Positions 12,578 through 25,685 of a DNA stretch of 46,241 nt are shown here, piece after piece. This DNA is from Dialister sp. CAG:486 (GTDB lineage Bacteria; Bacteroidota; Bacteroidia; Bacteroidales; Paludibacteraceae). Numbering within the stretch: the stretch's first letter is position 1; each line of letters begins with the position of its first letter. Below the pieces are notes generated by a model. That model saw only the letters and a program-made list of their open reading frames with translations. It ran no database searches and was not told where the DNA came from. The translations under genes were made by a program, and so were the position numbers. The DNA lies in contig CAVHGD010000009.1 of NCBI GenBank assembly GCA_963635385.1, forward strand, positions 1-46,241. The letters are read 5' to 3'.

Positions 12578-13249
12578 TTAGTCGGAGATAGTTTCCTTAT
12601 TTTTTACAATTTGGATACGGCGGAGGTATTCGTCGTAGCTCATGGTGCGCCCGCCCATGGCCTTGAGGTGGGGCGTCTCGAATTGGCAGTCTATCAGCCC
12701 GCCCCGCTGCTGCATGACCGATGCCAAATAGACCAACGCCACCTTCGATGCACTCGGAGCGAGCGAGAACATACTCTCGCCCATGAATCCGTTCCCGACG
12801 GTGACGCCATAGAGTCCGCCCACCAACGCATTTCCTTCCCATACCTCGACACTGGCGGCAAGCCCCATGCGGTGCAGCTCTCGGTAGGCGGGCAACATCC
12901 TCCCGCCGAGCCATGCATACGCCTCTTGGTCGCGCTGCTGTGCCGTGCTGCAGCCCGCTATCACTTGGTCGAAATCTGTATTCCACGACGCCCGATAGCG
13001 CCGGCTATGGAGCAGCTGACGCAGGCTGTGGCTGATATGTATCTCCTCGGGCAGAATGACAAAGCGGGTCATCGGGCAGTACCACTGTATCATCTCGGAG
13101 CGATAGGGATACCACGGAAAGATGCCCTGACTATAGGCGAGCCTCAGCCACTCCGGCGTCAGGTCGCCGCCCACCGCAAACAGTCCGTCCGGCTCGCCGT
13201 GGTGCGGGTCCGGAAACATAGGGGTCTCTTTGCGCAAATAGTATATCAT
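12578..13249 (-). CDS. aat: Leucyl/phenylalanyl-tRNA--protein transferase
   Basis: 223 aa. GIFPWY, QWYCPMTRFVILPEEIHISHSLRQ and the FMGESMFS block are typical of Aat. Confidence 0.9.
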   Translation of the reverse strand: MIYYLRKETPMFPDPHHGEPDGLFAVGGDLTPEWLRLAYSQGIFPWYPYRSEMIQWYCPMTRFVILPEEIHISHSLRQLLHSRRYRASWNTDFDQVIAGCSTAQQRDQEAYAWLGGRMLPAYRELHRMGLAASVEVWEGNALVGGLYGVTVGNGFMGESMFSLAPSASKVALVYLASVMQQRGGLIDCQFETPHLKAMGGRTMSYDEYLRRIQIVKNKETISD

Positions 13250-13352: not shown

Positions 13353-15617
13353 TCACAGCGTCAAGTGGTCGCCTTGGCGGTCGACCTTTGCCACGCCGCC
13401 CTTGCGCAGTTTGCCAAACAGAATTTCCTTAATCAGCACCGACGTCAAGAGGCGATTGACAGTGCGGTCCATCTCGCGGGCTCCGTACTGCGCCGTAAAG
13501 CCTGTTTCGAGCAATAGCTCTCGCGCTGCATCCGACAAGACCAACTCCACTTGTTTGGTCGCCAACTTCTCCCGCAGCAGAGCCAACTTCTTGTCTAAGA
13601 CAAGGGCGGCCATCTCTCGGCTCATATCGTTGAAGACCACCGTGCCCGTCAGTCGGTTGATAAACTCCGGCTTGAAGGTCTTCTTGACGGTCTGCAGCAT
13701 GGCACCGCCTCGACTGACCACAGGGTCGAAGCCTATGGCGCTCGAGGCAAACTGTGCCCCCGCATTGCTCGTCATGATAAGGATGACATTGCGGAAATCG
13801 GCCTTATTGCCTTGGTTGTCGGTCAGCCGTGCATAGTCCATGACCTGCAACAGAAGGTTGTAGATGTCCTCGTGCGCCTTCTCAATCTCGTCGAGCAGCA
13901 GCACACAGTTGGGCGACTTGCGTATCGCCGCCGTCAGCAGACCGCCGTCCTCGTAGCCAACATAGCCTGCGGGAGAGCCGATTAGCTTGGCCACGGAGTG
14001 TTTCTCGACAAACTCACTCATATCGAAGCGCACCAACTCCACGCCCAACTCCTTGGCCAACACACGGCACAGCTCCGTCTTGCCCACTCCCGTTGGGCCG
14101 ACAAAGAGCAGGCTCGCCAACGGCTTGTCCGTGTCGTTGAGCCCCGATTTGGCCATATAGACCGCCTCCACGACCTGCTCGATGGCCTTCTCCTGCCCAA
14201 ATATCCGGGCCGACAAATGCTTGTGCAGCAAAGCGAGAGTGTCCGTGCCCTTATCGGCACTCGCCATCATATCATCCGACAGCTTGCCCACCTTCTTGAC
14301 GATGTCGGTTACCAACGCTTTTGTCACCACTTGCCGCTCGGTGGTGCCTCGGTGCATCTCGCAATAGGCTCCCGCCTCGTCCAAAATATCGATTGCCTTA
14401 TCGGGGAAGAAGCGGTCGGTCAAGTACTTGGCGCACAAATCCACCACATAAGGAATCAGCTCTTTGCGGTACTGCACGTGGTGGTACGCCTCGTAATGCG
14501 ACTTGAGGCCATTCAGGATACAGATGGTGTCCTCCTTGGAAGGCTCGGCGACATCGATCTTTTGGAAACGGCGCCCTATGCCCTGCGACTGCTTGAAATA
14601 CTTCTCGTACTCCTTATAGGTGGTCGCCCCGATAAAGCGTACATCGCCCGCTTCCAAATAGGACTTGAGCATATTGGCGCCATCGAGGTTGCTATCGCTC
14701 GTTGCGCCCGAGCCTATCAGCGTATGGATCTCATCGATATAGACAATGGCATTGCCCTGCTTCTGCACACCGTCCATGATTTTGACCAATCGCTCCTCGA
14801 AGTCGCCCCGATAGCGTGTGCCCGCCACCAAGGAGCCCATATCGACTTGGTATATCTTGGCCCCTTGCAAGCGGCTCGGCACCTGTCCGTCTTCGATACG
14901 CTGCGCCAAGCCATAGATTAACGACGTCTTCCCCACGCCCGGTTCGCCCACGTGCAGCGGGTTGTTCTTGTCCTTACGGCAGAGTATCTCCATGGTGCGC
15001 TCAAGCTCCTGCTCACGGCCTATCAGCGGGTTGTGCTGCGAGAGGCGGTCGTTGATACAGGTGACCAAGCTCTCCCATTTCTGCTCCCGCTCCGACTTAT
15101 CCCACTCGGCATCGTCCTCGTCGAACGGACCGAACATGTCGTCGTCCGTGGGGTCCTCATCCGAGGGGTCGGCATCCTCCTCGGCATAGACATCCAATAT
15201 CGAACGCATCAGGTTGCCCTCGTTGTTGGTGAATTTGGTGCGCAAGAGGTAGTTGGCAAAGGAGTCCTTGAGCTGCAGCATGGCATAGAGCACATGCGGC
15301 ACATCCACCTTATCTTTGCCCGCATCCTTGGCCTGTATCTCCGCCTGATAGAGCACCTGCAAGAACTGCTGCGAATAGCCCCATTGGTAGTCAGTCACAT
15401 CCTTGGGCACGAAATCGCCGAGATTGGCCAATATAGGGTCTTTGATATCGTCTATCAGTTGGACATGGTACTTGCTGCACAGCCATTGGAACTCGGTATT
15501 GGCATACGCGATTCCCAACAGCAGCACCTCCGGCGTAACATATTCCACACGCTTATCTACCGCCCATGCGCCCCCATATCCGATTGCCTCCTGCAACCGA
15601 TGTGTTTGTTCCATCAT
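13353..15617 (-). CDS. clpA: ATP-dependent Clp protease ATP-binding subunit ClpA
   Basis: 754 aa. It has two AAA+ modules (GEPGVGKTS and GPTGVGKTE Walker A motifs) and a Clp N-domain, and lies downstream of clpS. Confidence 0.93.
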   Translation of the reverse strand: MMEQTHRLQEAIGYGGAWAVDKRVEYVTPEVLLLGIAYANTEFQWLCSKYHVQLIDDIKDPILANLGDFVPKDVTDYQWGYSQQFLQVLYQAEIQAKDAGKDKVDVPHVLYAMLQLKDSFANYLLRTKFTNNEGNLMRSILDVYAEEDADPSDEDPTDDDMFGPFDEDDAEWDKSEREQKWESLVTCINDRLSQHNPLIGREQELERTMEILCRKDKNNPLHVGEPGVGKTSLIYGLAQRIEDGQVPSRLQGAKIYQVDMGSLVAGTRYRGDFEERLVKIMDGVQKQGNAIVYIDEIHTLIGSGATSDSNLDGANMLKSYLEAGDVRFIGATTYKEYEKYFKQSQGIGRRFQKIDVAEPSKEDTICILNGLKSHYEAYHHVQYRKELIPYVVDLCAKYLTDRFFPDKAIDILDEAGAYCEMHRGTTERQVVTKALVTDIVKKVGKLSDDMMASADKGTDTLALLHKHLSARIFGQEKAIEQVVEAVYMAKSGLNDTDKPLASLLFVGPTGVGKTELCRVLAKELGVELVRFDMSEFVEKHSVAKLIGSPAGYVGYEDGGLLTAAIRKSPNCVLLLDEIEKAHEDIYNLLLQVMDYARLTDNQGNKADFRNVILIMTSNAGAQFASSAIGFDPVVSRGGAMLQTVKKTFKPEFINRLTGTVVFNDMSREMAALVLDKKLALLREKLATKQVELVLSDAARELLLETGFTAQYGAREMDRTVNRLLTSVLIKEILFGKLRKGGVAKVDRQGDHLTL

Positions 15618-15665: not shown

Positions 15666-15968
15666 CTATGCCTCGCTGACGGACACCTGCAGGGGATAGC
15701 CCTCGTTGCGGGCCATCTCGGTGACCTTGCTCGCCTTGGTGATAGCGATGTCGTAGCTATAAGTGCCGACCACCGCCGCACCCTCGTGATGGACACGCAA
15801 CATCAGCTCCGTGGCCTTGTCCATCGGGTGGAGGAAGACGACGCGCAACACCTTGACCACGAAATCCATCGTGGTGATGTCGTCGTTGTGCAGCACGACA
15901 TGGTAGCGGCGGGGGACATGCACCCGACTTCGGGTCTTCAATGTACTTTGTGTATTTTCTTTTGCCAT
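15666..15968 (-). CDS. clpS: ATP-dependent Clp protease adaptor ClpS
   Basis: 100 aa. RRYHVVLHNDDITTMDFVVKVL...ATELMLRVHHEGAAVVG is the conserved ClpS core. Confidence 0.92.
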   Translation of the reverse strand: MAKENTQSTLKTRSRVHVPRRYHVVLHNDDITTMDFVVKVLRVVFLHPMDKATELMLRVHHEGAAVVGTYSYDIAITKASKVTEMARNEGYPLQVSVSEA

Positions 15969-16002
15969 AGTGAAATGGGGGGATGTGAGGTTTGTATTAT
16001 TA

Positions 16003-16053
16003 TGCTTTATTCTGCTTTGGGTCTGTATTTATTTTGCTTTATTCTGCTTTGGG
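16003..16053. repeat. Direct 19-bp repeat TGCTTTATTCTGCTTTGGG (x2) between the SprT-like gene and clpS
   Basis: Copies lie at 16003-16021 and 16035-16053. The second copy supplies the last codons (PKAE*) of the SprT-like gene on the minus strand. Confidence 0.7.
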
Positions 16054-16713
16054 GCGGATGACGGTACCTGTATTCTCTAATTCGAGGGCGCCTGTAAGGT
16101 AGTGGTAGAGCTTGTTGGCGGGGAGAGAAATAAACGCCGGCTCGACCCGTACGGGGAATCGCTCAAATATAGCCCGATTGCTCGCATACCACCGAACCGA
16201 TTGCACACCCGGCAGCTGCTTAGTGCACTCCCAATAGGCAAATAACTTGTTTCGAATCACCAACGCAACCGCACACGTTCCGTCCTCCTTCTCCAACACG
16301 CATATATAGCGCCACCCATTGCTCTCACGCATAATGGCGGACTCTTCATCGTCCGAGAAATAGACCGATATTCGGATTCCATACCGCTCGGTAATCTCTT
16401 TCATCTTCGCCAAGAAAACCCGTCCGTGCGGGGAGGTATCTTGGATATGGTTATACCCGATGTAGTAGTGAATCATCTCATGGACTATGGTATCGATATA
16501 CTCCTCCTCGGGCAAATCCATTCGATTGGAAATCTCTATGCGAAAGTGCTCGGAGACGGTGCCGTCCTGTTCTTGTTGGCGAAACGTGCAGGTACGGCCT
16601 AACGAGCTATACCGTGCGTTGATGGCTAATTCGGGGCGTGGTAATACCCCCTCAAAACAAAGCCGATTGTAGTAATCAAACTTCTCGATCACATAGTCTA
16701 ATGTCGCTCTCAT
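16039..16713 (-). CDS. SprT-like zinc metalloprotease domain protein (HExxH)
   Basis: 224 aa. The N-terminus FDYYNRLCFEGVLPRPELAINARYSSLGRT and VHEMIHYYI (HExxH) are typical of SprT-like/Wss1-like domains. The C-terminal ~100 aa is unassigned. Its ATGA start overlaps the stop of the upstream gene. Confidence 0.75.
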   Translation of the reverse strand: MRATLDYVIEKFDYYNRLCFEGVLPRPELAINARYSSLGRTCTFRQQEQDGTVSEHFRIEISNRMDLPEEEYIDTIVHEMIHYYIGYNHIQDTSPHGRVFLAKMKEITERYGIRISVYFSDDEESAIMRESNGWRYICVLEKEDGTCAVALVIRNKLFAYWECTKQLPGVQSVRWYASNRAIFERFPVRVEPAFISLPANKLYHYLTGALELENTGTVIRPKAE

Positions 16714-18815
16714 TCCGTGAATTCTCCCTGCTCGTCGATATAATACACATTCAGCGCTTTCAGCCTATCTATTGCCAACTCATCTCCTTTGGCTGCCGCC
16801 TTACGATACCAAAATATCGCTTTCTCTTGGTCGGCTTCCACGCCCATCCCTTGTTCGTACATCCAACCCAACCTATATTGCCCCACCTTATTGCCCTTTT
16901 CGGCGGCTCGGGTATGGAGCCGCACGGCTTCGGCCTCGTTTTTCTCAATCAACTCCCCTTTGCAATAGCAGTAGGCTAACTGCAGCATGGCGTCTTCATC
17001 CTCTTTTTCGATGGCCAATTCATACCAATGTTTCATTTCATCACCGCTTTTCGGCACCCCATCTCCGTATCGATAGCACCTTGCTATGTTACGCATAGCC
17101 GCAGCATACCCCTTATCCGCTGCCCGCCGATACCATTCGAGTGCCTTATCGTAATCCTGCTCACAACCGTTTCCGTCATGATAATAATTTGCCACATTAT
17201 TCATGGCGACAATACCTCCCAAATCGGCTGCTTTCAGGTACCATTCAAACGCTTTTTCATAATCCGCATCATCGCCGACTTGTCCTCTATCATACATACA
17301 TCCCAAATTATTCATAGCGGCATCGTTTCCCTCTTCCGCCAATTCCGAGTAGAGGCGAAAAGCTTTTTGATAGTCTGGTTCCACAGCCCCATTACCATCC
17401 GCATAGATATAAGCCACCTCAAATCGCACTTCCTTACTTCCGTTCGCCAACGCCATATCCCCCCATCGCACGGCTTCTTTATAGTCTTTCTGCCCGAACC
17501 AGCCATTGTAATAGGCCTTAACCAATCGCTCTTGTGCCGACACACAGCCCCTCTGCGCACTCTCGACATAACAAACACGCGCAAAGGTCGGGTTCTTCAC
17601 AAATCCATTCCAACCAAACAGAAAATCATCCCCATAGTCCTTTTGCCTTGCAGGCGTTTCATCACGGATATAGGCTCGGAGGTCGTCTTCGGTATCGATT
17701 GCCTTGGCGGCAATGGCTTGCATCCGAGCGAAACGAGATGCGCTCTGTGGCACCCCATATTTGCCCTCCTTATACGCCTCCGCCAACACCTTCGCATAGT
17801 TGGCATTCCCCGCTTGCGCCAATCGAGCCATCCACGGCAGAGCCAATACGGCTTGACGCTCGCCCCCTTCGCGATACAGCTCCACAATCCGCTCGCAGCT
17901 TTCTTGGTCGGCAAACTCGGACACACACTCCTTATACGCAGCTATCGCCTTCGCCTTGTCTTCGGCACACCCTACCCCATGTCGGTAGTCGTGCGCCACC
18001 TGCCGCATAGCAGGCAAATAGTGTTGCCGAGCCGCCTTTACCTCCCACTGGTGCGCCAATCGGTCACTCTTGGGGGCATGCGTCCCTTCACGGAACAGGG
18101 CCGCTATCTGCTGTTGGGCAATGGGGCAGATATGTTTCGCACCATATTGGCGGCTCAGCCCGCACTCCGTGCAGCCGTTTTGGGCTTCTTGCACCATTCG
18201 GCTATAGGCCTCCGTGTTGCATAGAGTAGTTTGATACCCCTGCAAGGCCTTCTGCCGCTCGCGACAATAGTCGGTCGGCGCAACCGGTGTGGCGGTAGGC
18301 AATTCAAAATCGAGGAGCGAGTCTTGCAGCCGTACCGACACCCCGAACAGGGAGTCATCCGCCCACACCGCTGCGCAATAGACCACACGACTTGCCGTCA
18401 CGAAATCGTTCCACGTCTTGGAGTGCATAAAGTCGTCCTCACCGTAGCCTGTCTCGGTGGTCAGATGCACTATCAATGCGCCCTCATGCACCAAAGGCCT
18501 GTCACCCCGCACATTCTTCCAATCCTGATAGATCGGCACGATGCGGGCCGTCTTGAAAAGCCGTTTCTCCATGGCGGTTGCCCGCTCCATATCCGCGCGG
18601 CGCTGACCATACAGGAATAGGGTCGTCACCAACTCCGTTGAACACCCCAAGTCTTTGAGCACCCGCGCAAACGCCTTGCTCCCCCGCAGACGCCCACGGT
18701 CCGCCCCCTCGCAGCGGTACTCCACAAGCGTGATAGACGGCACAACGGCTATCAGCCGACGCAGCTCGTCATTGTCCATCAGGGCTCTATATAAGGTATC
18801 GATATTAGCGGTCAT
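16710..18815 (-). CDS. 701-aa protein: unknown N-terminal domain (~265 aa) plus a long Sel1-like (SLR/TPR-like) repeat array
   Basis: From about residue 270 onward there are many repeats of the Sel1 pattern (A..WY.KAA..G...A...LG..Y..G.GV..D...A..W). I recognised no family for residues 1-265 and saw no TM segment or signal peptide. It overlaps the MotB-like gene by 11 nt. Confidence 0.75.
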   Translation of the reverse strand: MTANIDTLYRALMDNDELRRLIAVVPSITLVEYRCEGADRGRLRGSKAFARVLKDLGCSTELVTTLFLYGQRRADMERATAMEKRLFKTARIVPIYQDWKNVRGDRPLVHEGALIVHLTTETGYGEDDFMHSKTWNDFVTASRVVYCAAVWADDSLFGVSVRLQDSLLDFELPTATPVAPTDYCRERQKALQGYQTTLCNTEAYSRMVQEAQNGCTECGLSRQYGAKHICPIAQQQIAALFREGTHAPKSDRLAHQWEVKAARQHYLPAMRQVAHDYRHGVGCAEDKAKAIAAYKECVSEFADQESCERIVELYREGGERQAVLALPWMARLAQAGNANYAKVLAEAYKEGKYGVPQSASRFARMQAIAAKAIDTEDDLRAYIRDETPARQKDYGDDFLFGWNGFVKNPTFARVCYVESAQRGCVSAQERLVKAYYNGWFGQKDYKEAVRWGDMALANGSKEVRFEVAYIYADGNGAVEPDYQKAFRLYSELAEEGNDAAMNNLGCMYDRGQVGDDADYEKAFEWYLKAADLGGIVAMNNVANYYHDGNGCEQDYDKALEWYRRAADKGYAAAMRNIARCYRYGDGVPKSGDEMKHWYELAIEKEDEDAMLQLAYCYCKGELIEKNEAEAVRLHTRAAEKGNKVGQYRLGWMYEQGMGVEADQEKAIFWYRKAAAKGDELAIDRLKALNVYYIDEQGEFTE

Positions 18816-19512
18816 GGCGTATCAAATTTTCCAACACACGGTAGTCGTCGGTGATCAACTTTATCTCTACGCGGCGGGACTTGGCGCAATCGATTTGGCG
18901 CATATCCTCCACGAAACGGCCCTCCCCGTCGAGCGCTCGGCTGTAGGAATAGCCGTTAGCCGTCAGCCAAAAATCCACCTGCTTTCGGTCCGCCTCGGGC
19001 AATGCGGTGTATTCCGGCATGGTGCGAATATAGGCAATCACACTGCGGGCACGGTTCTGGGACAGCTTCAAGTTGGCCATATACGGATCGGGATCGAGCG
19101 CCGGGAATGGAATGGTATCGGTATGGCCCTCGATACGAATCTCCTTGATACTACCCCGCAGAGAATCCGCCAACAAGATATGCAGATAGGCCGGAATGAC
19201 CGACGAAAGCATAGCGGCAAACTCCGGCTTGATATGCCAATCGCCCCGACCGAACAGACTCTCCGCCCGCGTGAACCGCATCGTGAGGTCGCTGCCGATG
19301 GCCATCGTGCCCTCGCCTATCTCCTGCCGGAACTCCGTTTCTAACTTGTCGTGCAGCTGCTGCTTGGTATCGACATAGTCCGACAGGCGTACCTCCTTTT
19401 CCCGATTGAGCTGCATGGCCCGATGCATATACGCCACCGACACAAACAGGAAAATGACCATCAGCCCCGTCATGAGGTCCGACACCGACATCCATACATT
19501 CGTTTTTGCCAT
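18805..19512 (-). CDS. MotB-like / OmpA-family protein (N-terminal TM with conserved Asp, C-terminal peptidoglycan-binding OmpA domain)
   Basis: The ORF track starts at 19548. I prefer the ATG at 19512 (MAKTNVWMSVSDLMTGLMVIFLFV...), 7 nt after the upstream stop. It has the OmpA motif IRIEGHTDT...NLKLSQNRARSV...GYSYSRAL...SRRVEIKL. Confidence 0.8.
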   Translation of the reverse strand: MAKTNVWMSVSDLMTGLMVIFLFVSVAYMHRAMQLNREKEVRLSDYVDTKQQLHDKLETEFRQEIGEGTMAIGSDLTMRFTRAESLFGRGDWHIKPEFAAMLSSVIPAYLHILLADSLRGSIKEIRIEGHTDTIPFPALDPDPYMANLKLSQNRARSVIAYIRTMPEYTALPEADRKQVDFWLTANGYSYSRALDGEGRFVEDMRQIDCAKSRRVEIKLITDDYRVLENLIRHDR

Positions 19513-19519
19513 AGCCGTA

Positions 19520-20254
19520 CTATTTAGCGTTTTGCACAATAGCGTCAAGCTTCTCGGCCATCGACTTCACCTGCTCCGACAACTCGGACAGCGTATTCTC
19601 GATGGCGGCCGCCGACTCCGCCGTCGTCAGCCGGACTACCCCCTGACGGTCGTGCTGACCCGCCATCATATTCAGCGTCGTTGTCAATTCCTCCAGCCGG
19701 ACATTGATTTGCTCGATATCATCGCTTGCCTGACGGACGCTCGCCACCAAAGTGTCGATATTCAGGTCGGTCTTATCGGCCGAATCGGCGGATTGGAGCT
19801 GCTTGAGCTCATCGGTATGGAGCTGCTTTAGCTCGGCGGTACGAAGCTCCACCTCATGGCGCAGATTCTCTATGGCCGACACCACTCGGAGGACCATCTC
19901 GGAACGTTCCATCTCCCATTTCGCCTTTTTATCCAACTTGTCAAACCTACGATTCACCACGTGGCTCAAAATCAACGAGCCAATCATACCACAGATGGAG
20001 GTAAAAAAGGCGGTCTGCAAGCCCGAAAGCAACTCGGGGATACTGGCATCGATATCCGACACGTTGAAATTCGCCAAACCGACCGTGATACCAATGAAAG
20101 TGCCCAACACGCCCAAAGTCGAGACCAAGGCGGGGAACTGCTCAATCCATTGCCTGTTGGCCTGTATTTCACTATCTTCTTTCATGAAAAGGTACGCACG
20201 AGCCGTCAAAAACGCACCTACAATAAACATACAAAGCAGAATCGTTAATAGCAT
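19520..20254 (-). CDS. MotA/TolQ/ExbB-family proton-channel protein with a ~140-aa C-terminal coiled-coil tail
   Basis: 244 aa. It has three hydrophobic segments and the family signatures STLGVLGTFIGITVGL and GLQTAFFTSICGMIGSLIL. Residues ~105-244 are heptad-like and charged (ELRTAELKQLHTDELKQLQS...). Confidence 0.75.
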   Translation of the reverse strand: MLLTILLCMFIVGAFLTARAYLFMKEDSEIQANRQWIEQFPALVSTLGVLGTFIGITVGLANFNVSDIDASIPELLSGLQTAFFTSICGMIGSLILSHVVNRRFDKLDKKAKWEMERSEMVLRVVSAIENLRHEVELRTAELKQLHTDELKQLQSADSADKTDLNIDTLVASVRQASDDIEQINVRLEELTTTLNMMAGQHDRQGVVRLTTAESAAAIENTLSELSEQVKSMAEKLDAIVQNAK

Positions 20255-20438
20255 AATACTTTCTTTATTTTGTTTTTCTTTTGGGACAGTTTCGTTTTTA
20301 GGGGCTGTCGGGGGGGGCAGTGTTTATGCGGGAGACTTGAGAGTATGCTTATGCTAATTGGGAGTCGAGGCCGGTAGGGAGATGCGATAGTATCAATGAG
20401 CAGCGACAGCAAGCAAAGATAGCCACAAAAATAACAAG

Positions 20439-20470
20439 CAAAGATACAATAAAAAATCCGAATATCCAAG
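20439..20470 (-). promoter_or_regulatory. Candidate promoter(s) for the MotA-like operon
   Basis: On the minus strand TATCTTTG occurs twice (plus-strand CAAAGATA at 20414-20421 and 20439-20446). The distal box has CTTG 20 nt upstream. The boxes are about 160-190 nt upstream of the ATG at 20254. Confidence 0.4.
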
Positions 20471-20579
20471 TGCAGAGAGTGGATTTTTATAAAAATGTTT
20501 CAAAATAGGCAGCAAATAGGAATGGAGCGTTACTATAAGTGCCATCCATAGCAGAGAGAATACCATAGCATATAGAATC

Positions 20580-20631
20580 GAAAAAAAGACCCAATAGTCT
20601 TTCCATAATTCGGATAATGACTATTAGGTCT
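20580..20631 (-). terminator. Intrinsic terminator downstream of the LRR gene
   Basis: A 13-bp stem with one mismatch (AGACCCAATAGTC at 20587-20599 / GACTATTAGGTCT at 20619-20631) is followed on the minus strand by a U-run (plus-strand A7 at 20581-20587). Confidence 0.6.
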
Positions 20632-20687
20632 ATTTTGGAATTAGCGCCATTTGTTGCGATAGGCGCAGAAGCTACTTCCTATATCGG

Positions 20688-22883
20688 CTATTTTATTTCC
20701 ATACCGGTTGCGGTATAGGTCTTGTCACCGTTTTTGATGAGGATTTGACCGTTGCGCAGAATCTTATAGGCGTGAGACACCTGTTCCGTTTCCGTATTTT
20801 CAATGGCCGTTTCCGTCTCAATGAAGTTGGAGAACAAACACCATCCTTTTGCCGATTGGTAAGCGGACTTCGTACCACGCGGAATGTATATCGGAGTATC
20901 TAGATGTACACCTATAACAAAATAATATTGCCAGGAAACAGCACCTTCTAATACCGGTGGCGTTTCAGTTAAAATAGTCAGAGATTTAATTTTGGAACAC
21001 TTATAAAACGCCATATCTCCAATAGTTGTTACACTATGAGGGATAGTGATAGACCCTGTTGCAGCACTACTACATGCCAATAGTGTCGACCGTGTTGCAT
21101 CCTTATAGACTAAATAACCATCCACATACCCATTCATGCTTCTTGCATCCCATGGGGCATCTACTGAATCCGTTCCATTGTAAACAATATTTGGAACATA
21201 TTCAAAAGCAGAGTATCCAATAGTCTTTACACTATTTGGAATAGTGATTGTGGTAAGAGCGGTGCAATCTGCAAAGGCTAGATCTCCTATACTTGTTACA
21301 CTGTTTGGAATAGTGATAGACCCTGTTGCGGCACTACTGCATGCCAATAGTGTCGACCGTGTTGCATCTTTATAAACAAAATAGCCATCCACATACCCAT
21401 TTCTGCTTTTTTCATACCATTCTCCATATACAGAATCCGATCCGCTGTAAATGATATTTGGAACATTTTGAAAGGCCGCATCTCCAATAGTCTTTACACT
21501 ATTTGGGATTGTGAGGGAAATAAGAGCAGTACAATAAAAGAAAGCGCCGCCTCCAATGTCTGTTACACTATTTGGGATTGTTAGGCTCGTTAAAGCGCTA
21601 CACTCCGAAAATGCACCGTCTCCAATGCTTGTTACACCATTTGGGATGGTTGTTGATTTGCAACCTTTTACTAATGTATTCGTAGCTGTTTCTATAATGG
21701 CATTACAGTTATTACGGCTATCATACTTCGGATTTCCTTCTTCTACCACAATCGAAGAAAGATTATTACTGAAATACAAAACACAAGAGCCATAATCATC
21801 TACAATACTTGTTAGACTTTTGGGAATAGTAATAGAAGTCCAATCAATGTAGTCACAGAAAGCACCAGATTCTATACTTTGTACGCCATCCGGAATAAAT
21901 GTAGATTTGCAACCAAGTATTAATTTGTTCGTGGCAGTTTCTATGATAGCATTACATTTATCACGGCTATCATATTTCGGATTCCCTTTTTCAACCACAA
22001 TCGAAGAAAGACTACTACAGCCCCCAAAAGCATAATCCCCAATACTTGTTACACTGCTTGGGATGGTGATAGAATGCAGACCGACGCAATTGGTAAAAGC
22101 ACAATCTTCTATACTCGTTACACCCTCCGGAATAGTTGAATTTCTGCAACCTTGTACTAATTTATTCGTAGCTGTTTCTATGATGGCATTACAATTATCA
22201 CGACTATCATAATTCGGATTGCCTTCTTCTACCACAATCGAAGAAAGACTGATACAATCATCAAAAGGATATTGTGACTCATAAAATACATATTCATCAT
22301 CTACTGCGTTCCCAATACTTGTTACACTATTTGGGATGGTGACAGAGGTAAGAGCTGTGCATTCAGCAAAGGCGTTATTTCCTATACTTGTTACACTGTT
22401 AGGTATAGTGACAGAGGTAAGAGCTGTGCATTCAGCAAAGGCTCTATTTCCTATAGTCCGGACACCTTCCATATTGATAGAGGTAAGATTAGCACAGTCT
22501 GCAAAAGTTGATTTTTCAATGCTCGCAACACTATTAGGAATGGTAATTGAGGAGATACCAGACCCGTAAAATGCGTGATCTCCAATACTCGTTACGCTAT
22601 TGGGAATAGTAATAGAAATAAGTTCACTACAGTCCCCAAATGCATACTTGCGTATTCGCGTAACGCTATAGGATATCCCATTATATGTCACAGTGGATGG
22701 AATAGTAACCGTTGTGTAATGATAATGAGAAAAAGCATCTTCTATCGTATCTGACAATTCTACCGTATAGGGTGCAACACTACTTGTAATTTTATAAAAC
22801 AAGCCATCGTACTTAAAATCATACGCAAAAATGGCGGTGGTGGTAAATAATGCCACCAATAATGATAGGAATTTTGTTTTCAT
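20688..22883 (-). CDS. BspA-type leucine-rich repeat (LRR_5-like) surface protein with signal peptide
   Basis: The ORF track starts at 22913. I prefer the ATG at 22883 (MKTKFLSLLVALFTTTAIFA). It has about 23-aa repeats of the form IPNSVTSIGxxAFxxCxxLTSxT throughout, plus larger repeated modules (SSIVVEEGNP.YDSR.NCNAIIETATN.L..GC three times). Confidence 0.85.
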   Translation of the reverse strand: MKTKFLSLLVALFTTTAIFAYDFKYDGLFYKITSSVAPYTVELSDTIEDAFSHYHYTTVTIPSTVTYNGISYSVTRIRKYAFGDCSELISITIPNSVTSIGDHAFYGSGISSITIPNSVASIEKSTFADCANLTSINMEGVRTIGNRAFAECTALTSVTIPNSVTSIGNNAFAECTALTSVTIPNSVTSIGNAVDDEYVFYESQYPFDDCISLSSIVVEEGNPNYDSRDNCNAIIETATNKLVQGCRNSTIPEGVTSIEDCAFTNCVGLHSITIPSSVTSIGDYAFGGCSSLSSIVVEKGNPKYDSRDKCNAIIETATNKLILGCKSTFIPDGVQSIESGAFCDYIDWTSITIPKSLTSIVDDYGSCVLYFSNNLSSIVVEEGNPKYDSRNNCNAIIETATNTLVKGCKSTTIPNGVTSIGDGAFSECSALTSLTIPNSVTDIGGGAFFYCTALISLTIPNSVKTIGDAAFQNVPNIIYSGSDSVYGEWYEKSRNGYVDGYFVYKDATRSTLLACSSAATGSITIPNSVTSIGDLAFADCTALTTITIPNSVKTIGYSAFEYVPNIVYNGTDSVDAPWDARSMNGYVDGYLVYKDATRSTLLACSSAATGSITIPHSVTTIGDMAFYKCSKIKSLTILTETPPVLEGAVSWQYYFVIGVHLDTPIYIPRGTKSAYQSAKGWCLFSNFIETETAIENTETEQVSHAYKILRNGQILIKNGDKTYTATGMEIK
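22319..22456. repeat. Near-perfect 69-bp tandem duplication inside the LRR gene
   Basis: GACAGAGGTAAGAGCTGTGCATTCAGCAAAGGC occurs at 22341-22373 and 22410-22442 (period 69 nt, one 23-aa LRR unit). Confidence 0.8.
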
Positions 22884-22964
22884 TGTTCTTACTTTTTGAT
22901 AGAACCCACCCATCGATGGAAGTAAAATACGAACTTAACAGCATCAATGGATAAGCCATTATTG

Positions 22965-23017
22965 AAAAAATTGGATGGGGGGACTATCTAACACTCATAT
23001 ATTGTTAAGCAGTCCCC
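22965..23017 (-). terminator. Possible terminator after the HEPN-motif gene
   Basis: GGGGACT (22979-22985) pairs with AGTCCCC (23011-23017) around a loop of about 25 nt that has an inner TAACA/TGTTA stem. On the minus strand a U-run (plus-strand A6 at 22965-22970) lies 8 nt downstream. Confidence 0.35.
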
Positions 23018-23031
23018 TATTCCCTAATAAT

Positions 23032-23421
23032 TCATTTTTTACGACTATTCTCCAAAACAGCCACAAATTTCCAGAATATATTCAGAGATATCGACATCTC
23101 TAACGTATTTGTTCCTTTTTGGGAGTAATCCTTCAAAATGATATTTCCGTTCTCTTCTTTAACATGTCCATGTGCCATAGCATTTCGGATATGTCTTAGC
23201 AAATCATACACCTTATCTTTACTATATTGAAACTTACAATATTGCGATACATTATGCGAACCATTGTATTGGTAGAACAAACATTGAATGCCGTGTTCTT
23301 TGATAAACGATTGCAGACACTCATCATCCCAATTGTATTCATCATAATGTCCTTTTATCTCATTGGCAAATCGGACAATAAAGTCGTATCTCCTTGCTTT
23401 TTCTACTTTGGTGAGTTCCAT
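23032..23421 (-). CDS. Small (129 aa) protein with an RNxxxH HEPN-type motif (putative RNase/toxin)
   Basis: LLRHIRNAMAHGHV: R79-N-A-M-A-H84 is encoded at 23170-23187 (checked by hand: cga aat gct atg gca cat). The size and predicted helical character fit minimal HEPN domains. This is motif-level evidence only. Confidence 0.55.
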   Translation of the reverse strand: MELTKVEKARRYDFIVRFANEIKGHYDEYNWDDECLQSFIKEHGIQCLFYQYNGSHNVSQYCKFQYSKDKVYDLLRHIRNAMAHGHVKEENGNIILKDYSQKGTNTLEMSISLNIFWKFVAVLENSRKK

Positions 23422-23438
23422 TTCAAAATTTCTAATTT

Positions 23439-23663
23439 TTAGTTATTTGCAAGAGTCGGGTGAAATGGGTCAACGAATGTAACATCCTCGGGAGATACCC
23501 GATATACCTTATGAGTACCATTTTCTACAACAATGGCACAAGACTCATTGGCGATTGTATCACCGACATTGTTCATTATAGGCATTAGTCCCCATTCCTC
23601 AAACACACCTGTTTTCTCTTGCAACTGGTCGCCAATCTTAATTAAAAAATTTACGTTTCTCAT
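23439..23663 (-). CDS. Hypothetical 74-aa protein, upstream partner of the HEPN-motif gene
   Basis: The ORF ends 17 nt before the 129-aa gene on the same strand. I recognised no family. Confidence 0.45.
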   Translation of the reverse strand: MRNVNFLIKIGDQLQEKTGVFEEWGLMPIMNNVGDTIANESCAIVVENGTHKVYRVSPEDVTFVDPFHPTLANN

Positions 23664-23736
23664 TTTCTTGTAATTTAATTTTGTGAAACAATATATTTAT
23701 TCAGCGGGCAAAACATCATTGTGGTTTGCACTCGCA

Positions 23737-24516
23737 TTAGTTTAATTTGTCATAAACAAGACGTACGGAATAATATTTATATTTACCACTGCTAGAAACA
23801 TACAAATCATCATATCCATCAAAATAAAGAATATAAGCTCCATCATCGTCGTATTGTGTAGCAGACCAATAGTACAAACTAGCTTTGAGGTCGTTTGAAG
23901 ATGCAGGCAGGAATATAGCGCCTGCATTTTGCATACTTTCCCATTCCGATATGGTATAGACATTTGTCTTATAGCCATCGCCATAACCACTATCAAAAGT
24001 AAGCCCCTTAGGTGATTCGAAGTTATCCGGCAAAATAATAAGACCTTGCACATTATTCACTTTGGCAAGCCCCCACAATGCCTGTGAATTAAGACGGCCA
24101 CTTATTAAATAGGACCACTCATCGCTTTTCAATGTGCGCCATGAGTGATATGATCCGTCTATCGAATTAACGCCCCAATCGGTAAAAGAGCTCTTATACT
24201 CATAATAGCCGGCAATAAACATCGGGTCGCGACCTGTTCCCCATGCAAACAGATCTATCCAACCGTTGCCCCCGACATTATCATTAGCACTACGATTATA
24301 CACATCATATTGATGTTCTGCAAAGCGCCATGTTCCGGAACCTGGGGAGTACTGCAGATTTCCTTTTGAGAAAATAACCTTCTTGTTATCACCCACAGAA
24401 AAGTAGTGAACACTTGCCGATGGATCATCATCGGTGTCTAATCCGTTCTTGTCTTTGTTGCACGCTACAAAAGACATTGCAACAATACACAGTAACATAC
24501 TCATTAGTTTTTTCAT
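23737..24516 (-). CDS. Lipoprotein with a DUF1566/FISUMP-like C-terminal domain
   Basis: The ORF track starts at 24546. I prefer the ATG at 24516 (MKKLMSMLLCIVAMSFVAC, lipobox-like). WRTLKSDEWSYL...GAIFLPASS...YYWSAT...YYSVRLVYD resembles the WR.P...E...L...A.FLPA.G.R...YWS...SVR.V pattern of that fold. Confidence 0.65.
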   Translation of the reverse strand: MKKLMSMLLCIVAMSFVACNKDKNGLDTDDDPSASVHYFSVGDNKKVIFSKGNLQYSPGSGTWRFAEHQYDVYNRSANDNVGGNGWIDLFAWGTGRDPMFIAGYYEYKSSFTDWGVNSIDGSYHSWRTLKSDEWSYLISGRLNSQALWGLAKVNNVQGLIILPDNFESPKGLTFDSGYGDGYKTNVYTISEWESMQNAGAIFLPASSNDLKASLYYWSATQYDDDGAYILYFDGYDDLYVSSSGKYKYYSVRLVYDKLN

Positions 24517-24932
24517 AAAGATTTCCCTAATTCGTGTCGGGCGCAACTGTTAAGCGGTGGGCAGACGCATTGATTAAATAGGATTTTTGAAGGTATTTTG
24601 CCCATGATACCGTCATTCGATTTAGCGTTAGACACACAAAAAAAGCGCAGACCTCGTATTGTTTCATCGCAATCAGAGGCCTTCGCAATACCCTACACTT
24701 CGATAAACAATAGGAAACCTACGCTAATATGACGGCACACTATGCTTAGATACAACCAAGCATAGCATGACTAAACGTCATACCCATAGGCATCTATTGC
24801 TACTTTGCAGTTGAAGTGTATCGAAAGTTGCGAAGTTTCTGATTACAAGCCACAAAGCGTCAATAAACGCTATTCAATATGTCCAATCCACCCTGCAACG
24901 AGGACATACCCCCTTCAGCGTAGATTCGGCCA

Positions 24933-24964
24933 CAAAGATACTACTTTTGACGGAACTATGCAAA
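24933..24964 (-). promoter_or_regulatory. Canonical minus-strand promoter (TTTG-N20-TATCTTTG) about 410 nt upstream of the lipoprotein ATG
   Basis: Plus-strand CAAAGATA at 24933-24940 and CAAA at 24961-24964. Confidence 0.45.
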
Positions 24965-25204
24965 TACAAAGGGGGTATTTGATGGAGAGAAAAGAGAATA
25001 AGGATGTACAGAAATAGAATTGCTAGTCGTTGGGGATTTGTGTTTTTTTGGGGGCGTATGGAGATGTTTTTGGGTGGCTTTAGGGGAGGTCGTTGAGGAG
25101 AATTAGGATTGGCGTTGATGTGGCTATGGGAGAATTTTGGAGTGGATGCGGGGTGGGTTCAAAGTAGCTTCGAGGTGGCTAAAAAGTATTCAGAAAGTAT
25201 TCGT

Positions 25205-25240
25205 ATGCTTCGGTTATGCTTCGGTTATGTTTCGGTTATC
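25205..25240. repeat. Three tandem copies of an 11-12 bp unit (ATGCTTCGGTT)
   Basis: ATGCTTCGGTTATGCTTCGGTTATGTTTCGGTTATC, read directly. Confidence 0.8.
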
Positions 25241-25509
25241 CTATACGCAGGTCTCGGAAAAGACAGGGAGAGAAAGTGTGGAGATTTTCGTGAGGGTGAG
25301 GGGTGAGAGTTGAGGGGTGATAGCAGTTGTTCGGAATGGTTGAGTGCTTAGTGTTTAGAGTTTATCACAGTTTTTGGGAGAGATTGAGTGTTTAGTGTTG
25401 AGAGTTTAGCGCAGTGGAGAGGGGATAGTTTGGAGCGGGTTGGCGGGGAATGGAGAAGGGGCAGGAAAAGGAGCGGGAGGGGTTTCTTGCGGGGTTTTAT
25501 CGCTCACGG

Positions 25510-25541
25510 CTTGCATACGTAGCGAAAAAGTAGTAACTTTG
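25510..25541 (+). promoter_or_regulatory. Candidate promoter for fumarate hydratase (CTTG-N20-TAACTTTG)
   Basis: TAACTTTG at 25534-25541 and CTTG at 25510-13. The site is about 185 nt upstream of the ATG at 25724. Confidence 0.4.
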
Positions 25542-25685
25542 CAGCCGTTCTGTGCAATGTGGCGAACAAGCGATTGAGCAATGGGGGATGTAGAATGGTA
25601 TGCTGTTTGATGTATGAAGGAGAGGAGATAGCAACAGAAAGGCATGGAAATGGGTAATTGTTCATTGGTAATTGCCACAGGACAG

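Follow-up and report, generated by a model that had tools for sequence, protein, structure and literature searches.

A 46,241-nucleotide (nt) stretch of contig CAVHGD010000009.1 from a Bacteroidales genome (assembly GCA_963635385.1), here called the window, carries a cassette of four minus-strand genes, which encode a short-tailed ZorA-like subunit, a ZorB-like subunit, a Sel1-repeat protein and an SprT-like metalloprotease. Homology and gene neighbourhood suggest that this locus is an anti-phage defence system derived from Zorya with a proteolytic output, a reading to which we give a probability of roughly 60%. The original prediction, made from the sequence of the window, had described a stator unit with the logic of a Zorya motor and soluble effectors of another kind. 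Searches with ZorA2 and ZorB2 profiles strengthened that likeness of logic to direct homology, and the earlier reading is supported and sharpened by the analysis. The four genes of its inventory stand, whereas the ClpS, ClpA and Aat genes directly downstream had been overlooked. The parts of the cassette are the following.

19520-20254, minus strand: ZorA-like subunit of 244 amino acids (aa), MotA/ExbB core and coiled-coil tail
18805-19512, minus strand: ZorB-like subunit, 235 aa from its ATG, transmembrane (TM) helix with Asp and OmpA-like domain
16710-18815, minus strand: Sel1 protein, 701 aa, N-domain, four cysteines (Cys4) and Sel1 repeats
18276-18815, minus strand: orphan N-domain of the Sel1 protein, residues ~1-180
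18126-18266, minus strand: four-cysteine knuckle of the Sel1 protein (C184, C215, C218, C230)
16710-18125, minus strand: Sel1-repeat solenoid, residues ~231-701, by Pfam Sel1
16039-16713, minus strand: SprT/Spartan-type zinc metalloprotease, 224 aa, by Pfam SprT-like and a family profile

The packing of these genes was found to be as predicted: a 7-nt gap (tacggct) separates the ZorA-like TAG from the ZorB-like ATG, the ZorB-like and Sel1 genes share an 11-nt overlap (ATGACCGCTAA), and the Sel1 and SprT-like genes share a 4-nt ATGA overlap. The peptide signatures quoted earlier (STLGVLGTFIGITVGL, GLQTAFFTSICGMIGSL and WMSVSDLMTGLMVIFLF) and the HExxH motif (HEMIH) all occur in the translations. 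In the public annotation the ZorA-like protein starts at Met9 and has 236 aa (window 20230-20254); the family alignment favours the 244-aa form, in which the N-terminus lines up with TM helix 1 of the orthologues.

Both stator subunits were recognised by Zorya-specific profiles. The ZorA-like protein matched the PADLOC ZorA2 model PDLC00635 (1.2e-41, profile positions 12-234 of 505) and 13 further PADLOC ZorA models, and the ZorB-like protein matched the ZorB2 model PDLC00641 over its full length (7.1e-66). NCBIfam ranked Zorya II models first for the pair, at scores far under the equivalog cut-offs, and its best non-Zorya matches were MotA (27.9 bits, cut-off 340) and a MotB family (32.4 bits, cut-off 259). 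In comparisons with solved structures, the ZorB-like protein matched the type II ZorB 8vvi_A (1e-28) and the Escherichia coli ZorB (EcZorB) 8qyd_F (3.5e-7), with the TM Asp context WMSVSDLMTG and the wall-binding NLxLSxxR motif aligned to both. The profile of the ZorA-like family retrieved the solved type II ZorA 8vvi_F (1.6e-18), with the E. coli type I ZorAB as next best. Some members of this family also have a weak precomputed match to Pfam PF28082, 'ZorA-like_t1'.

A complete type II system is present in Bacteroides sp. Marseille-P3684 (locus L032), with a ZorA2 of 529 aa (1e-229), a ZorB2 (4e-80) and a ZorE2 (1.7e-114). Residues 4-108 of the ZorA-like protein are 55% identical to the channel core of this ZorA2, and the ZorB-like protein is 48% identical to its ZorB2 across the full length. 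The same PADLOC profiles recognise both systems. The motor therefore comes from the Bacteroidales Zorya II lineage, and the relation of the stator pair to Zorya II is one of homology, not just of analogy.

The domain content of the pair agrees with the prediction of a 244-aa MotA/ExbB-family protein with a coiled-coil tail of ~140 aa. In the ZorA-like protein three TM helices are present, and the MotA/ExbB channel core occupies residues 1-105; Pfam MotA_ExbB scored 29.4 bits, exceeding its cut-off, and the remaining tail gave coiled-coil-type matches only. The 'full OmpA domain' attributed to the second protein was upheld in one sense: the Pfam OmpA match is partial and sub-threshold (24.9 bits, cut-off 27.2; model positions 2-64 of 98), and the domain is full only as a ZorB domain, given the full-length ZorB2 match (7e-66) and the 8vvi_A match. 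A Tol, Exb or Mot reading was rejected, as the Zorya-specific profiles were better by tens of orders of magnitude and partner genes were absent. The flanks scanned contained no gene for ExbD/TolR, TonB/TolA, flagella or gliding, in line with the original prediction, and the gene sets that define Tol-Pal, ExbBD-TonB and flagellar MotAB/PomAB (with MotX) were not found.

To follow the distribution of the cassette, a representative genome of each of 185,579 species was scanned with the ZorA-like alignment, and the matches were annotated by tblastn. This species scan separated two groups, one with a long-tailed ZorA and ZorB, the other with the short-tailed form, in every case ahead of genes for ZorB, the Sel1 protein and the SprT-like protein. 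At least 13 of the 185,579 species representatives carry the cassette, a lower bound because the best 80 of 256 matches were kept. The species scan, a metagenome scan and contig look-ups gave 23 distinct cassette sequences, window included, all from Bacteroidales. The four genes have the same order and orientation in 23/23, with ZorA-like identities as low as 31-39%, an arrangement well beyond what chance would give. Every host with a name is a metagenome-assembled genome of gut or rumen Bacteroidales, and these include Bacteroidaceae, Muribaculaceae (among them Sodaliphilus and Sangeribacter), 'Porphyromonadaceae' and bacterium P3, so that the cassette bears on phage-host dynamics in these habitats.

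The genomic contexts show a defence-like distribution, with patchy hosts and variable flanks that contain restriction, BREX, conflict and mobile genes. L046 has an AlwI restriction enzyme in its flanks, L105 an Eco57I-type restriction-methylase-helicase with an HNH endonuclease, L110 a TOTE-system protein with a superfamily 1 (SF1) helicase and PglZ-BrxL, and L107 an SNF2 helicase with a MoxR ternary-system ATPase. In L101 and L102 an integrase occurs together with ERF, YqaJ and a polyvalent protein of 4516 aa. L099 has both a VapE-like primase and a large DEAD helicase, L095 combines Vsr with a PglZ response regulator, and L097 has a UvrD/PD-(D/E)xK protein, HepT/MNT and an HD (dGTPase-like) protein. 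The neighbours of other cassettes are ordinary, for example HisG, DbpA and thioredoxin-like proteins. The original prediction had asked whether the four genes are co-conserved and whether they move between contexts or sit in defence islands: they occur together in all 23 sequences and in varied contexts, several of which are defence islands or mobile elements. The defence-island setting holds for other lineages; the lineage of the window itself has the cassette in a syntenic, core-like position. A strictly vertical core inheritance, which would have spoken against the earlier reading, is approached there but is not what was found, because in other lineages the cassette lies elsewhere.

The last gene of the cassette encodes the SprT-like HExxH protease that had been predicted. 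Pfam SprT-like (PF10263) scored 47.4 bits (cut-off 25.6), and the family profile matched the human Spartan protease domain (6mdw, 5e-13) with the HEMIH…HG active site aligned. The protease domain comprises residues 1-120 and is followed by a C-terminal alpha/beta domain (residues 121-224). The zinc site, H78-E79-M80-I81-H82 with H96, is invariant in 45 sequences, and on these residues the protease looks active. An AlphaFold2 model (predicted local distance difference test, pLDDT, 92.8) has two domains; Foldseek found no significant match to it in the PDB (best E-value 0.1), and in a viral library its best structural neighbours were phage SprT homologues.

Full-length paralogues of this protein (37-40% identity), which lack ZorAB and the Sel1 protein, were found in the metagenome scan. 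In at least six loci (L112, L113, L116, L124, L126 and L128), from rumen and gut metagenomes, they end a cassette of PglZ, a BrxA-like protein, a Z1 helicase (989 aa) and SprT. This cassette lies within a BREX-type island (for example L112:37-16038) that also encodes PglX, PDC-M59A/B, a WYL protein and DUF262/GmrSD-like proteins. SprT, Wss1, metalloprotease, Zorya and Sel1 all go unmentioned in a BREX survey of 2026, and as far as found in the literature searched this association is likewise undescribed. That the two-domain protease is repeatedly the terminal gene of defence cassettes supports an effector role, and its presence at the end of BREX-type islands points to an unrecognised effector family in Bacteroidales immunity. 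More distant relatives (~32% identity) stand alone among ordinary genes. Contigs of phages and jumbo phages (L183-L215) encode the protease half only (residues 1-116, ~30% identity), with examples in phages of ~410 kb (L187, L191, L195, L196). A phage-borne cassette was rejected, as the viral contigs have no ZorAB or Sel1 partners.

The third gene encodes, as predicted, a 701-aa protein with an unrecognised N-domain and a long Sel1 array. Pfam Sel1 scored 185.6 bits (4.9e-56) with at least six repeats, and matches to solved Sel1 proteins begin at profile position 231. The length of the array differs among orthologues, which have 676-1002 aa. When 1.84 billion representative proteins were searched exhaustively with the N-domain, 17 clusters matched, which align at the N-terminus of 640-1030-aa proteins, except for two short fragments and one repeat-type match; a word-indexed database returned nothing for the N-domain. 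The N-domain is thus essentially confined to proteins of this architecture, in keeping with a single four-gene unit. Its single-sequence structure prediction was unusable (pLDDT 35). Y33, W99, H117 and Y146 are invariant in the N-domain, and the four cysteines of the knuckle are invariant across 14 orthologues, a conservation suggesting that the knuckle is probably a zinc site. N-domain identity is ~25-29%, compared with near 50% for ZorB and SprT, and the N-domain and the ZorA tail evolve faster than the rest of the cassette, which would fit a co-evolving contact between the two. Neither the Sel1 nor the SprT-like protein has a visible signal peptide, so both should be cytoplasmic.

MotX is a periplasmic protein, and a MotX reading of the Sel1 protein was rejected, since the match (60.6 bits, cut-off 330) reflects generic Sel1 repeats and a signal peptide is lacking. 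Among PADLOC models it matched only PtuA (1.2e-4), weakly and generically, and the SprT-like protein had no PADLOC 2.0 match; the claim that these effectors are unlike those of any known Zorya is borne out. An apparent loss of the Sel1 gene in a 97% relative (L216) was an artefact of a masked N run, as the frame is open.

The ZorA-like tail spans residues ~105-244, or ~140 aa, versus ~415 aa in the L032 ZorA2 and ~270 aa in the 8vvi ZorA, and beyond coiled-coil character it has nothing in common with the L032 tail. In the family alignment the channel core is nearly invariant and the tail is variable apart from its motifs, in which Q175, D178, D179, E181, T210, S214 and N220 are near-invariant. 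The short ZorA-like family comprises 68 database clusters of 136-406 aa, the near-full-length ones having ~220-330 aa. The tail has about half the length of the shortest seen so far, that of the solved type II complex, and so offers a natural test of signalling by length or by motif.

Several observations weigh against a reading of the cassette as a Zorya-derived defence system. Long tails occur in all known Zorya types, and every tested truncation of the E. coli ZorA abolished defence (PMC11946911); the long cytoplasmic tail that characterises Zorya is absent here, where ~140 aa is far shorter than any known functional Zorya tail. The type-defining partners (ZorC with ZorD, ZorE, or ZorF with ZorG) are missing, and the cassette contains no nuclease. 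With ZorE absent and only ~44% of the ZorA2 profile covered, it would not be expected to be called a complete system by the PADLOC type II model. The N-domain of the Sel1 protein had no Pfam, PDB or PADLOC match, and the C-terminal domain of the protease (121-224) no recognisable PDB relatives. Housekeeping genes flank the cassette in the window. One side has fumarate hydratase, an M23 peptidase and Dxr; folE, PRK, SIS/CBS and a KDO8P-type synthase lie on the other. In the lineage of the window the cassette is syntenic and stays in its core-like place down to 56% ZorA-like identity, a positional conservation that is unusual for a defence system.

The shortened tail could also indicate a decayed remnant, that is, a Zorya II system without its distal tail and ZorE which lies by chance beside unrelated Sel1 and SprT-like genes. 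The ZorA2 profile is indeed covered only to position 234/505 and ZorE is absent, but the short form is the rule across the 68-cluster family and has near-invariant residues of its own in the tail, which argues against a decayed gene. The four open reading frames (ORFs) are intact and tightly packed in 23 sequences from several families, and the catalytic and cysteine motifs are invariant, making decay very improbable.

The cassette of the window is directly followed, on the same strand, by genes of the N-degron pathway.

15969-16038, minus strand: spacer of 70 nt between the SprT-like gene and clpS
15666-15968, minus strand: ClpS, N-degron adaptor (Pfam ClpS 2.8e-32)
13353-15617, minus strand: ClpA, AAA+ unfoldase (Pfam AAA_2, AAA, AAA_lid_9 and ClpB_D2-small)
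12578-13249, minus strand: Aat, leucyl/phenylalanyl-tRNA-protein transferase (Pfam Leu_Phe_trans 4.2e-61)

ClpS, ClpA and Aat lie directly after the cassette in 7/23 distinct sequences (window, L001, L004/6, L007/8, L018, L104 and L021), and three partial loci (L103, L106, L109) have this arrangement too. Where gene ends are readable, the gap between the SprT-like gene and clpS is 1-4 nt; in the window a 25-nt direct repeat (15997-16021 and 16029-16053, 96% identical), which copies the 3' end of the SprT-like gene, extends this spacer to 70 nt. A simple scan of the seven genes from the ZorA-like gene to aat gave no terminator-like site at any of their junctions. No ClpS was found nearby in 14/23 distinct sequences. 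In a neighbour-joining tree of ZorB and SprT, the ClpS-linked loci fall at two distinct positions, with loci that lack ClpS nested among them. The outer flanks of the linked loci differ (fumarase, an NQR operon, or others), so that the seven-gene block is the conserved unit, and the cassette proteins and ClpA/ClpS/Aat are similarly diverged (~50% for the window versus L007 or L018). This pattern of linkage exceeds the expectation from random insertion and is compatible with an old operon fusion under selection or with an insertion-prone site. In E. coli clpS and clpA are adjacent, with aat nearby, and to our knowledge no upstream protease or membrane sensor is linked to clpS in model organisms. 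In the literature searched, no paper combined SprT with either ClpS or N-degron.

The ClpS link also bears on another explanation, according to which the cassette is a housekeeping stress module and belongs to proteostasis instead of immunity: the wall-anchored, ion-driven sensor would report any envelope damage, the SprT-like protein would cut cellular proteins and ClpS-ClpA-Aat would remove the fragments. The direct linkage in 7/23 sequences and three partial loci, its recurrence in two parts of the tree with the seven-gene block kept among variable outer flanks, a similar divergence that fits long joint vertical descent, and the housekeeping genes around the window all favour such a role. 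Yet the 14/23 sequences without nearby ClpS include several that lie among restriction, BREX, TOTE, MoxR or mobile elements, a housekeeping role would be expected to be widespread whereas the cassette is rare and patchy, and the nearest relatives of its motor are bona fide Zorya II. We consider this explanation unlikely, although it is the strongest rival of the defence reading.

A more specific proposal, that a motor-controlled SprT-like endoprotease, placed by the Sel1 scaffold, feeds destabilising N-termini to a co-transcribed ClpS-ClpA-Aat, is put forward tentatively and is doubtful at present. Were it true, it would provide a first example of a signal-triggered endoprotease with a genetic link to the bacterial N-degron pathway, and of a Zorya-type immune or stress sensor with targeted protein degradation as its output in place of DNA degradation. 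The fusion with clpS-clpA-aat offers a lead on which endoproteases make bacterial N-end-rule substrates.

For Zorya I and II, the model is that envelope damage causes ion flow and rotation, which the tail relays to local soluble partners (PMC11946911, PMC11890865). By analogy with these systems, a ZorA5B2 complex would be anchored to the cell wall, and envelope damage at phage entry would open the ion path so that ZorA turns around ZorB. The short tail could relay this signal through its acidic and Thr/Ser/Asn motifs to the Sel1/Cys4 protein, which may serve as an adaptor or target-recognition scaffold and would place or activate the SprT-like protease near the entry site. As Spartan and Wss1 suggest, the protease might then cut DNA-bound proteins that arrive with the phage genome or load onto it, proteolysis thereby replacing the DNA cutting by ZorE or ZorD. 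In lineages with the clpS-clpA-aat fusion, gene order suggests that the fragments are perhaps cleared by the N-degron pathway.

A defence role could instead take the form of abortive infection, in which the triggered SprT-like protease destroys essential host proteins and the cell stops or dies. Protease effectors of other defence systems commonly act on host targets, which counts in favour of this outcome, as does the lack of evidence of a DNA-binding domain like the zinc-binding sub-domain of Spartan, and a large repeat scaffold could keep the protease inactive until its release. On the other side, the ClpS/ClpA link would suit limited cleavage products better than wholesale proteolysis, and Zorya I has been summarised as a local, direct response by effector recruitment and not as cell death (PMC11946911, PMC11890865). 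The sequence itself does not discriminate direct immunity from cell death. Altogether we regard abortive infection as improbable, and prefer local proteolysis by a Zorya-derived system.

Compared with Zorya II, the cassette has the same order of ZorA, ZorB and effector(s) in tight packing, and it conserves the TM Asp and the peptidoglycan-binding motif, but the HNH nuclease ZorE is absent and a Sel1/Cys4 protein with a Spartan-type protease stands in its place. With Zorya I it shares a ZorA core, since the ZorA-like family profile aligns with that of EcZorA, and a 5:2-type ZorAB architecture would be expected; EcZorA, in contrast, has 729 aa with a very long tail, and its effectors, ZorC (DNA-binding) and ZorD (an Snf2-type nuclease/helicase), include no protease. 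Zorya effectors of known function (ZorC/ZorD, ZorE) act on DNA. The metalloprotease resembles Spartan, Wss1 and SprT in its HExxH and third His in the context HEMIH…(N)xxD…HG, within an SprT-like fold. It differs from Spartan in that residues 121-224 have no similarity to the zinc-binding, DNA-binding sub-domain, and in being the operon partner of a membrane motor and not a replication-coupled repair factor. With the SprT paralogue of the BREX islands it shares the 224-aa two-domain form and the position as last gene of a defence cassette, though the partners there are PglZ, a BrxA-like protein and the 989-aa Z1 helicase, not ZorA, ZorB and Sel1. To the leucine/N-degron operon it is likened by the order ClpS, ClpA, Aat directly after the cassette.

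A ZorA subunit and a ZorB subunit with TM Asp and wall-binding domain are thus both present, together with tandem Sel1 repeats, while the tail and the type-defining effectors fail to match, which makes the cassette a new Zorya subtype, outside types I-III. Its tail and effectors are new, and its sensor is from the type II ZorA-ZorB lineage. Searches of PADLOC 2.0 and the literature found no described system that covers the cassette. The literature searched describes three Zorya types only, all long-tailed; no paper contains both SprT and Zorya, Zorya is never paired with Sel1, and nothing relevant was found on 'type IV' or 'ZorA-like'. A protease-coupled variant would mark the ZorAB sensor as a versatile trigger, able to drive quite different outputs.

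The leader of the cassette contains candidate promoter elements.

20255-20470, minus strand: leader upstream of the cassette, with three TAnnTTTG motifs

These motifs (20446-20439, 20433-20426 and 20421-20414, minus strand) fall within 33 nt and lie 160-190 nt upstream of the ZorA-like ATG. TAnnTTTG is the -7 promoter type of Bacteroides, and we take the motifs to be promoter elements; use of any of them would imply a long leader. A 74-aa ORF in the leader is probably spurious. A scan for sigma-70 promoters and terminators gave fewer sites than shuffled sequence, the promoter model being ill-suited to Bacteroidota, and an Rfam scan of the window from 11 to 26 kb gave no match.

Upstream, a low-GC (35-42%) insertion of ~4.3 kb (window 20300-25600) splits the ZorA-like gene from fumarase. 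It is strain-specific, being absent in the 97%-identical relative L216, and contains the following genes.

20688-22913, minus strand: BspA-type leucine-rich repeat protein
23032-23421, minus strand: 129-aa HEPN protein of the pEK499_p136 kind
23439-23663: 74-aa ORF upstream of the HEPN gene
23737-24546: 269-aa ORF without matches

In one sub-clade (L099:10758-12350, L108:6234-7301) a DUF1848 protein is encoded after the cassette; the downstream region of L099 also encodes a 180-aa small Sel1 protein and a 1377-aa DEAD/ResIII helicase. These proteins may be additional partners of the cassette.

A different ZorAB-related cassette, in which the ZorA-like protein appears as two ORFs, was found in two loci (L009:3442-11266, L013:2980-9232). 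Its order is an 816-902-aa ORF and smaller ORFs, a ZorA-like protein of 271 or 286 aa, one of ~247 aa, ZorB and a 270-314-aa ORF. The island in L009 also contains a type ISP restriction enzyme, SIR2, and RloB with an AAA_15 ATPase.

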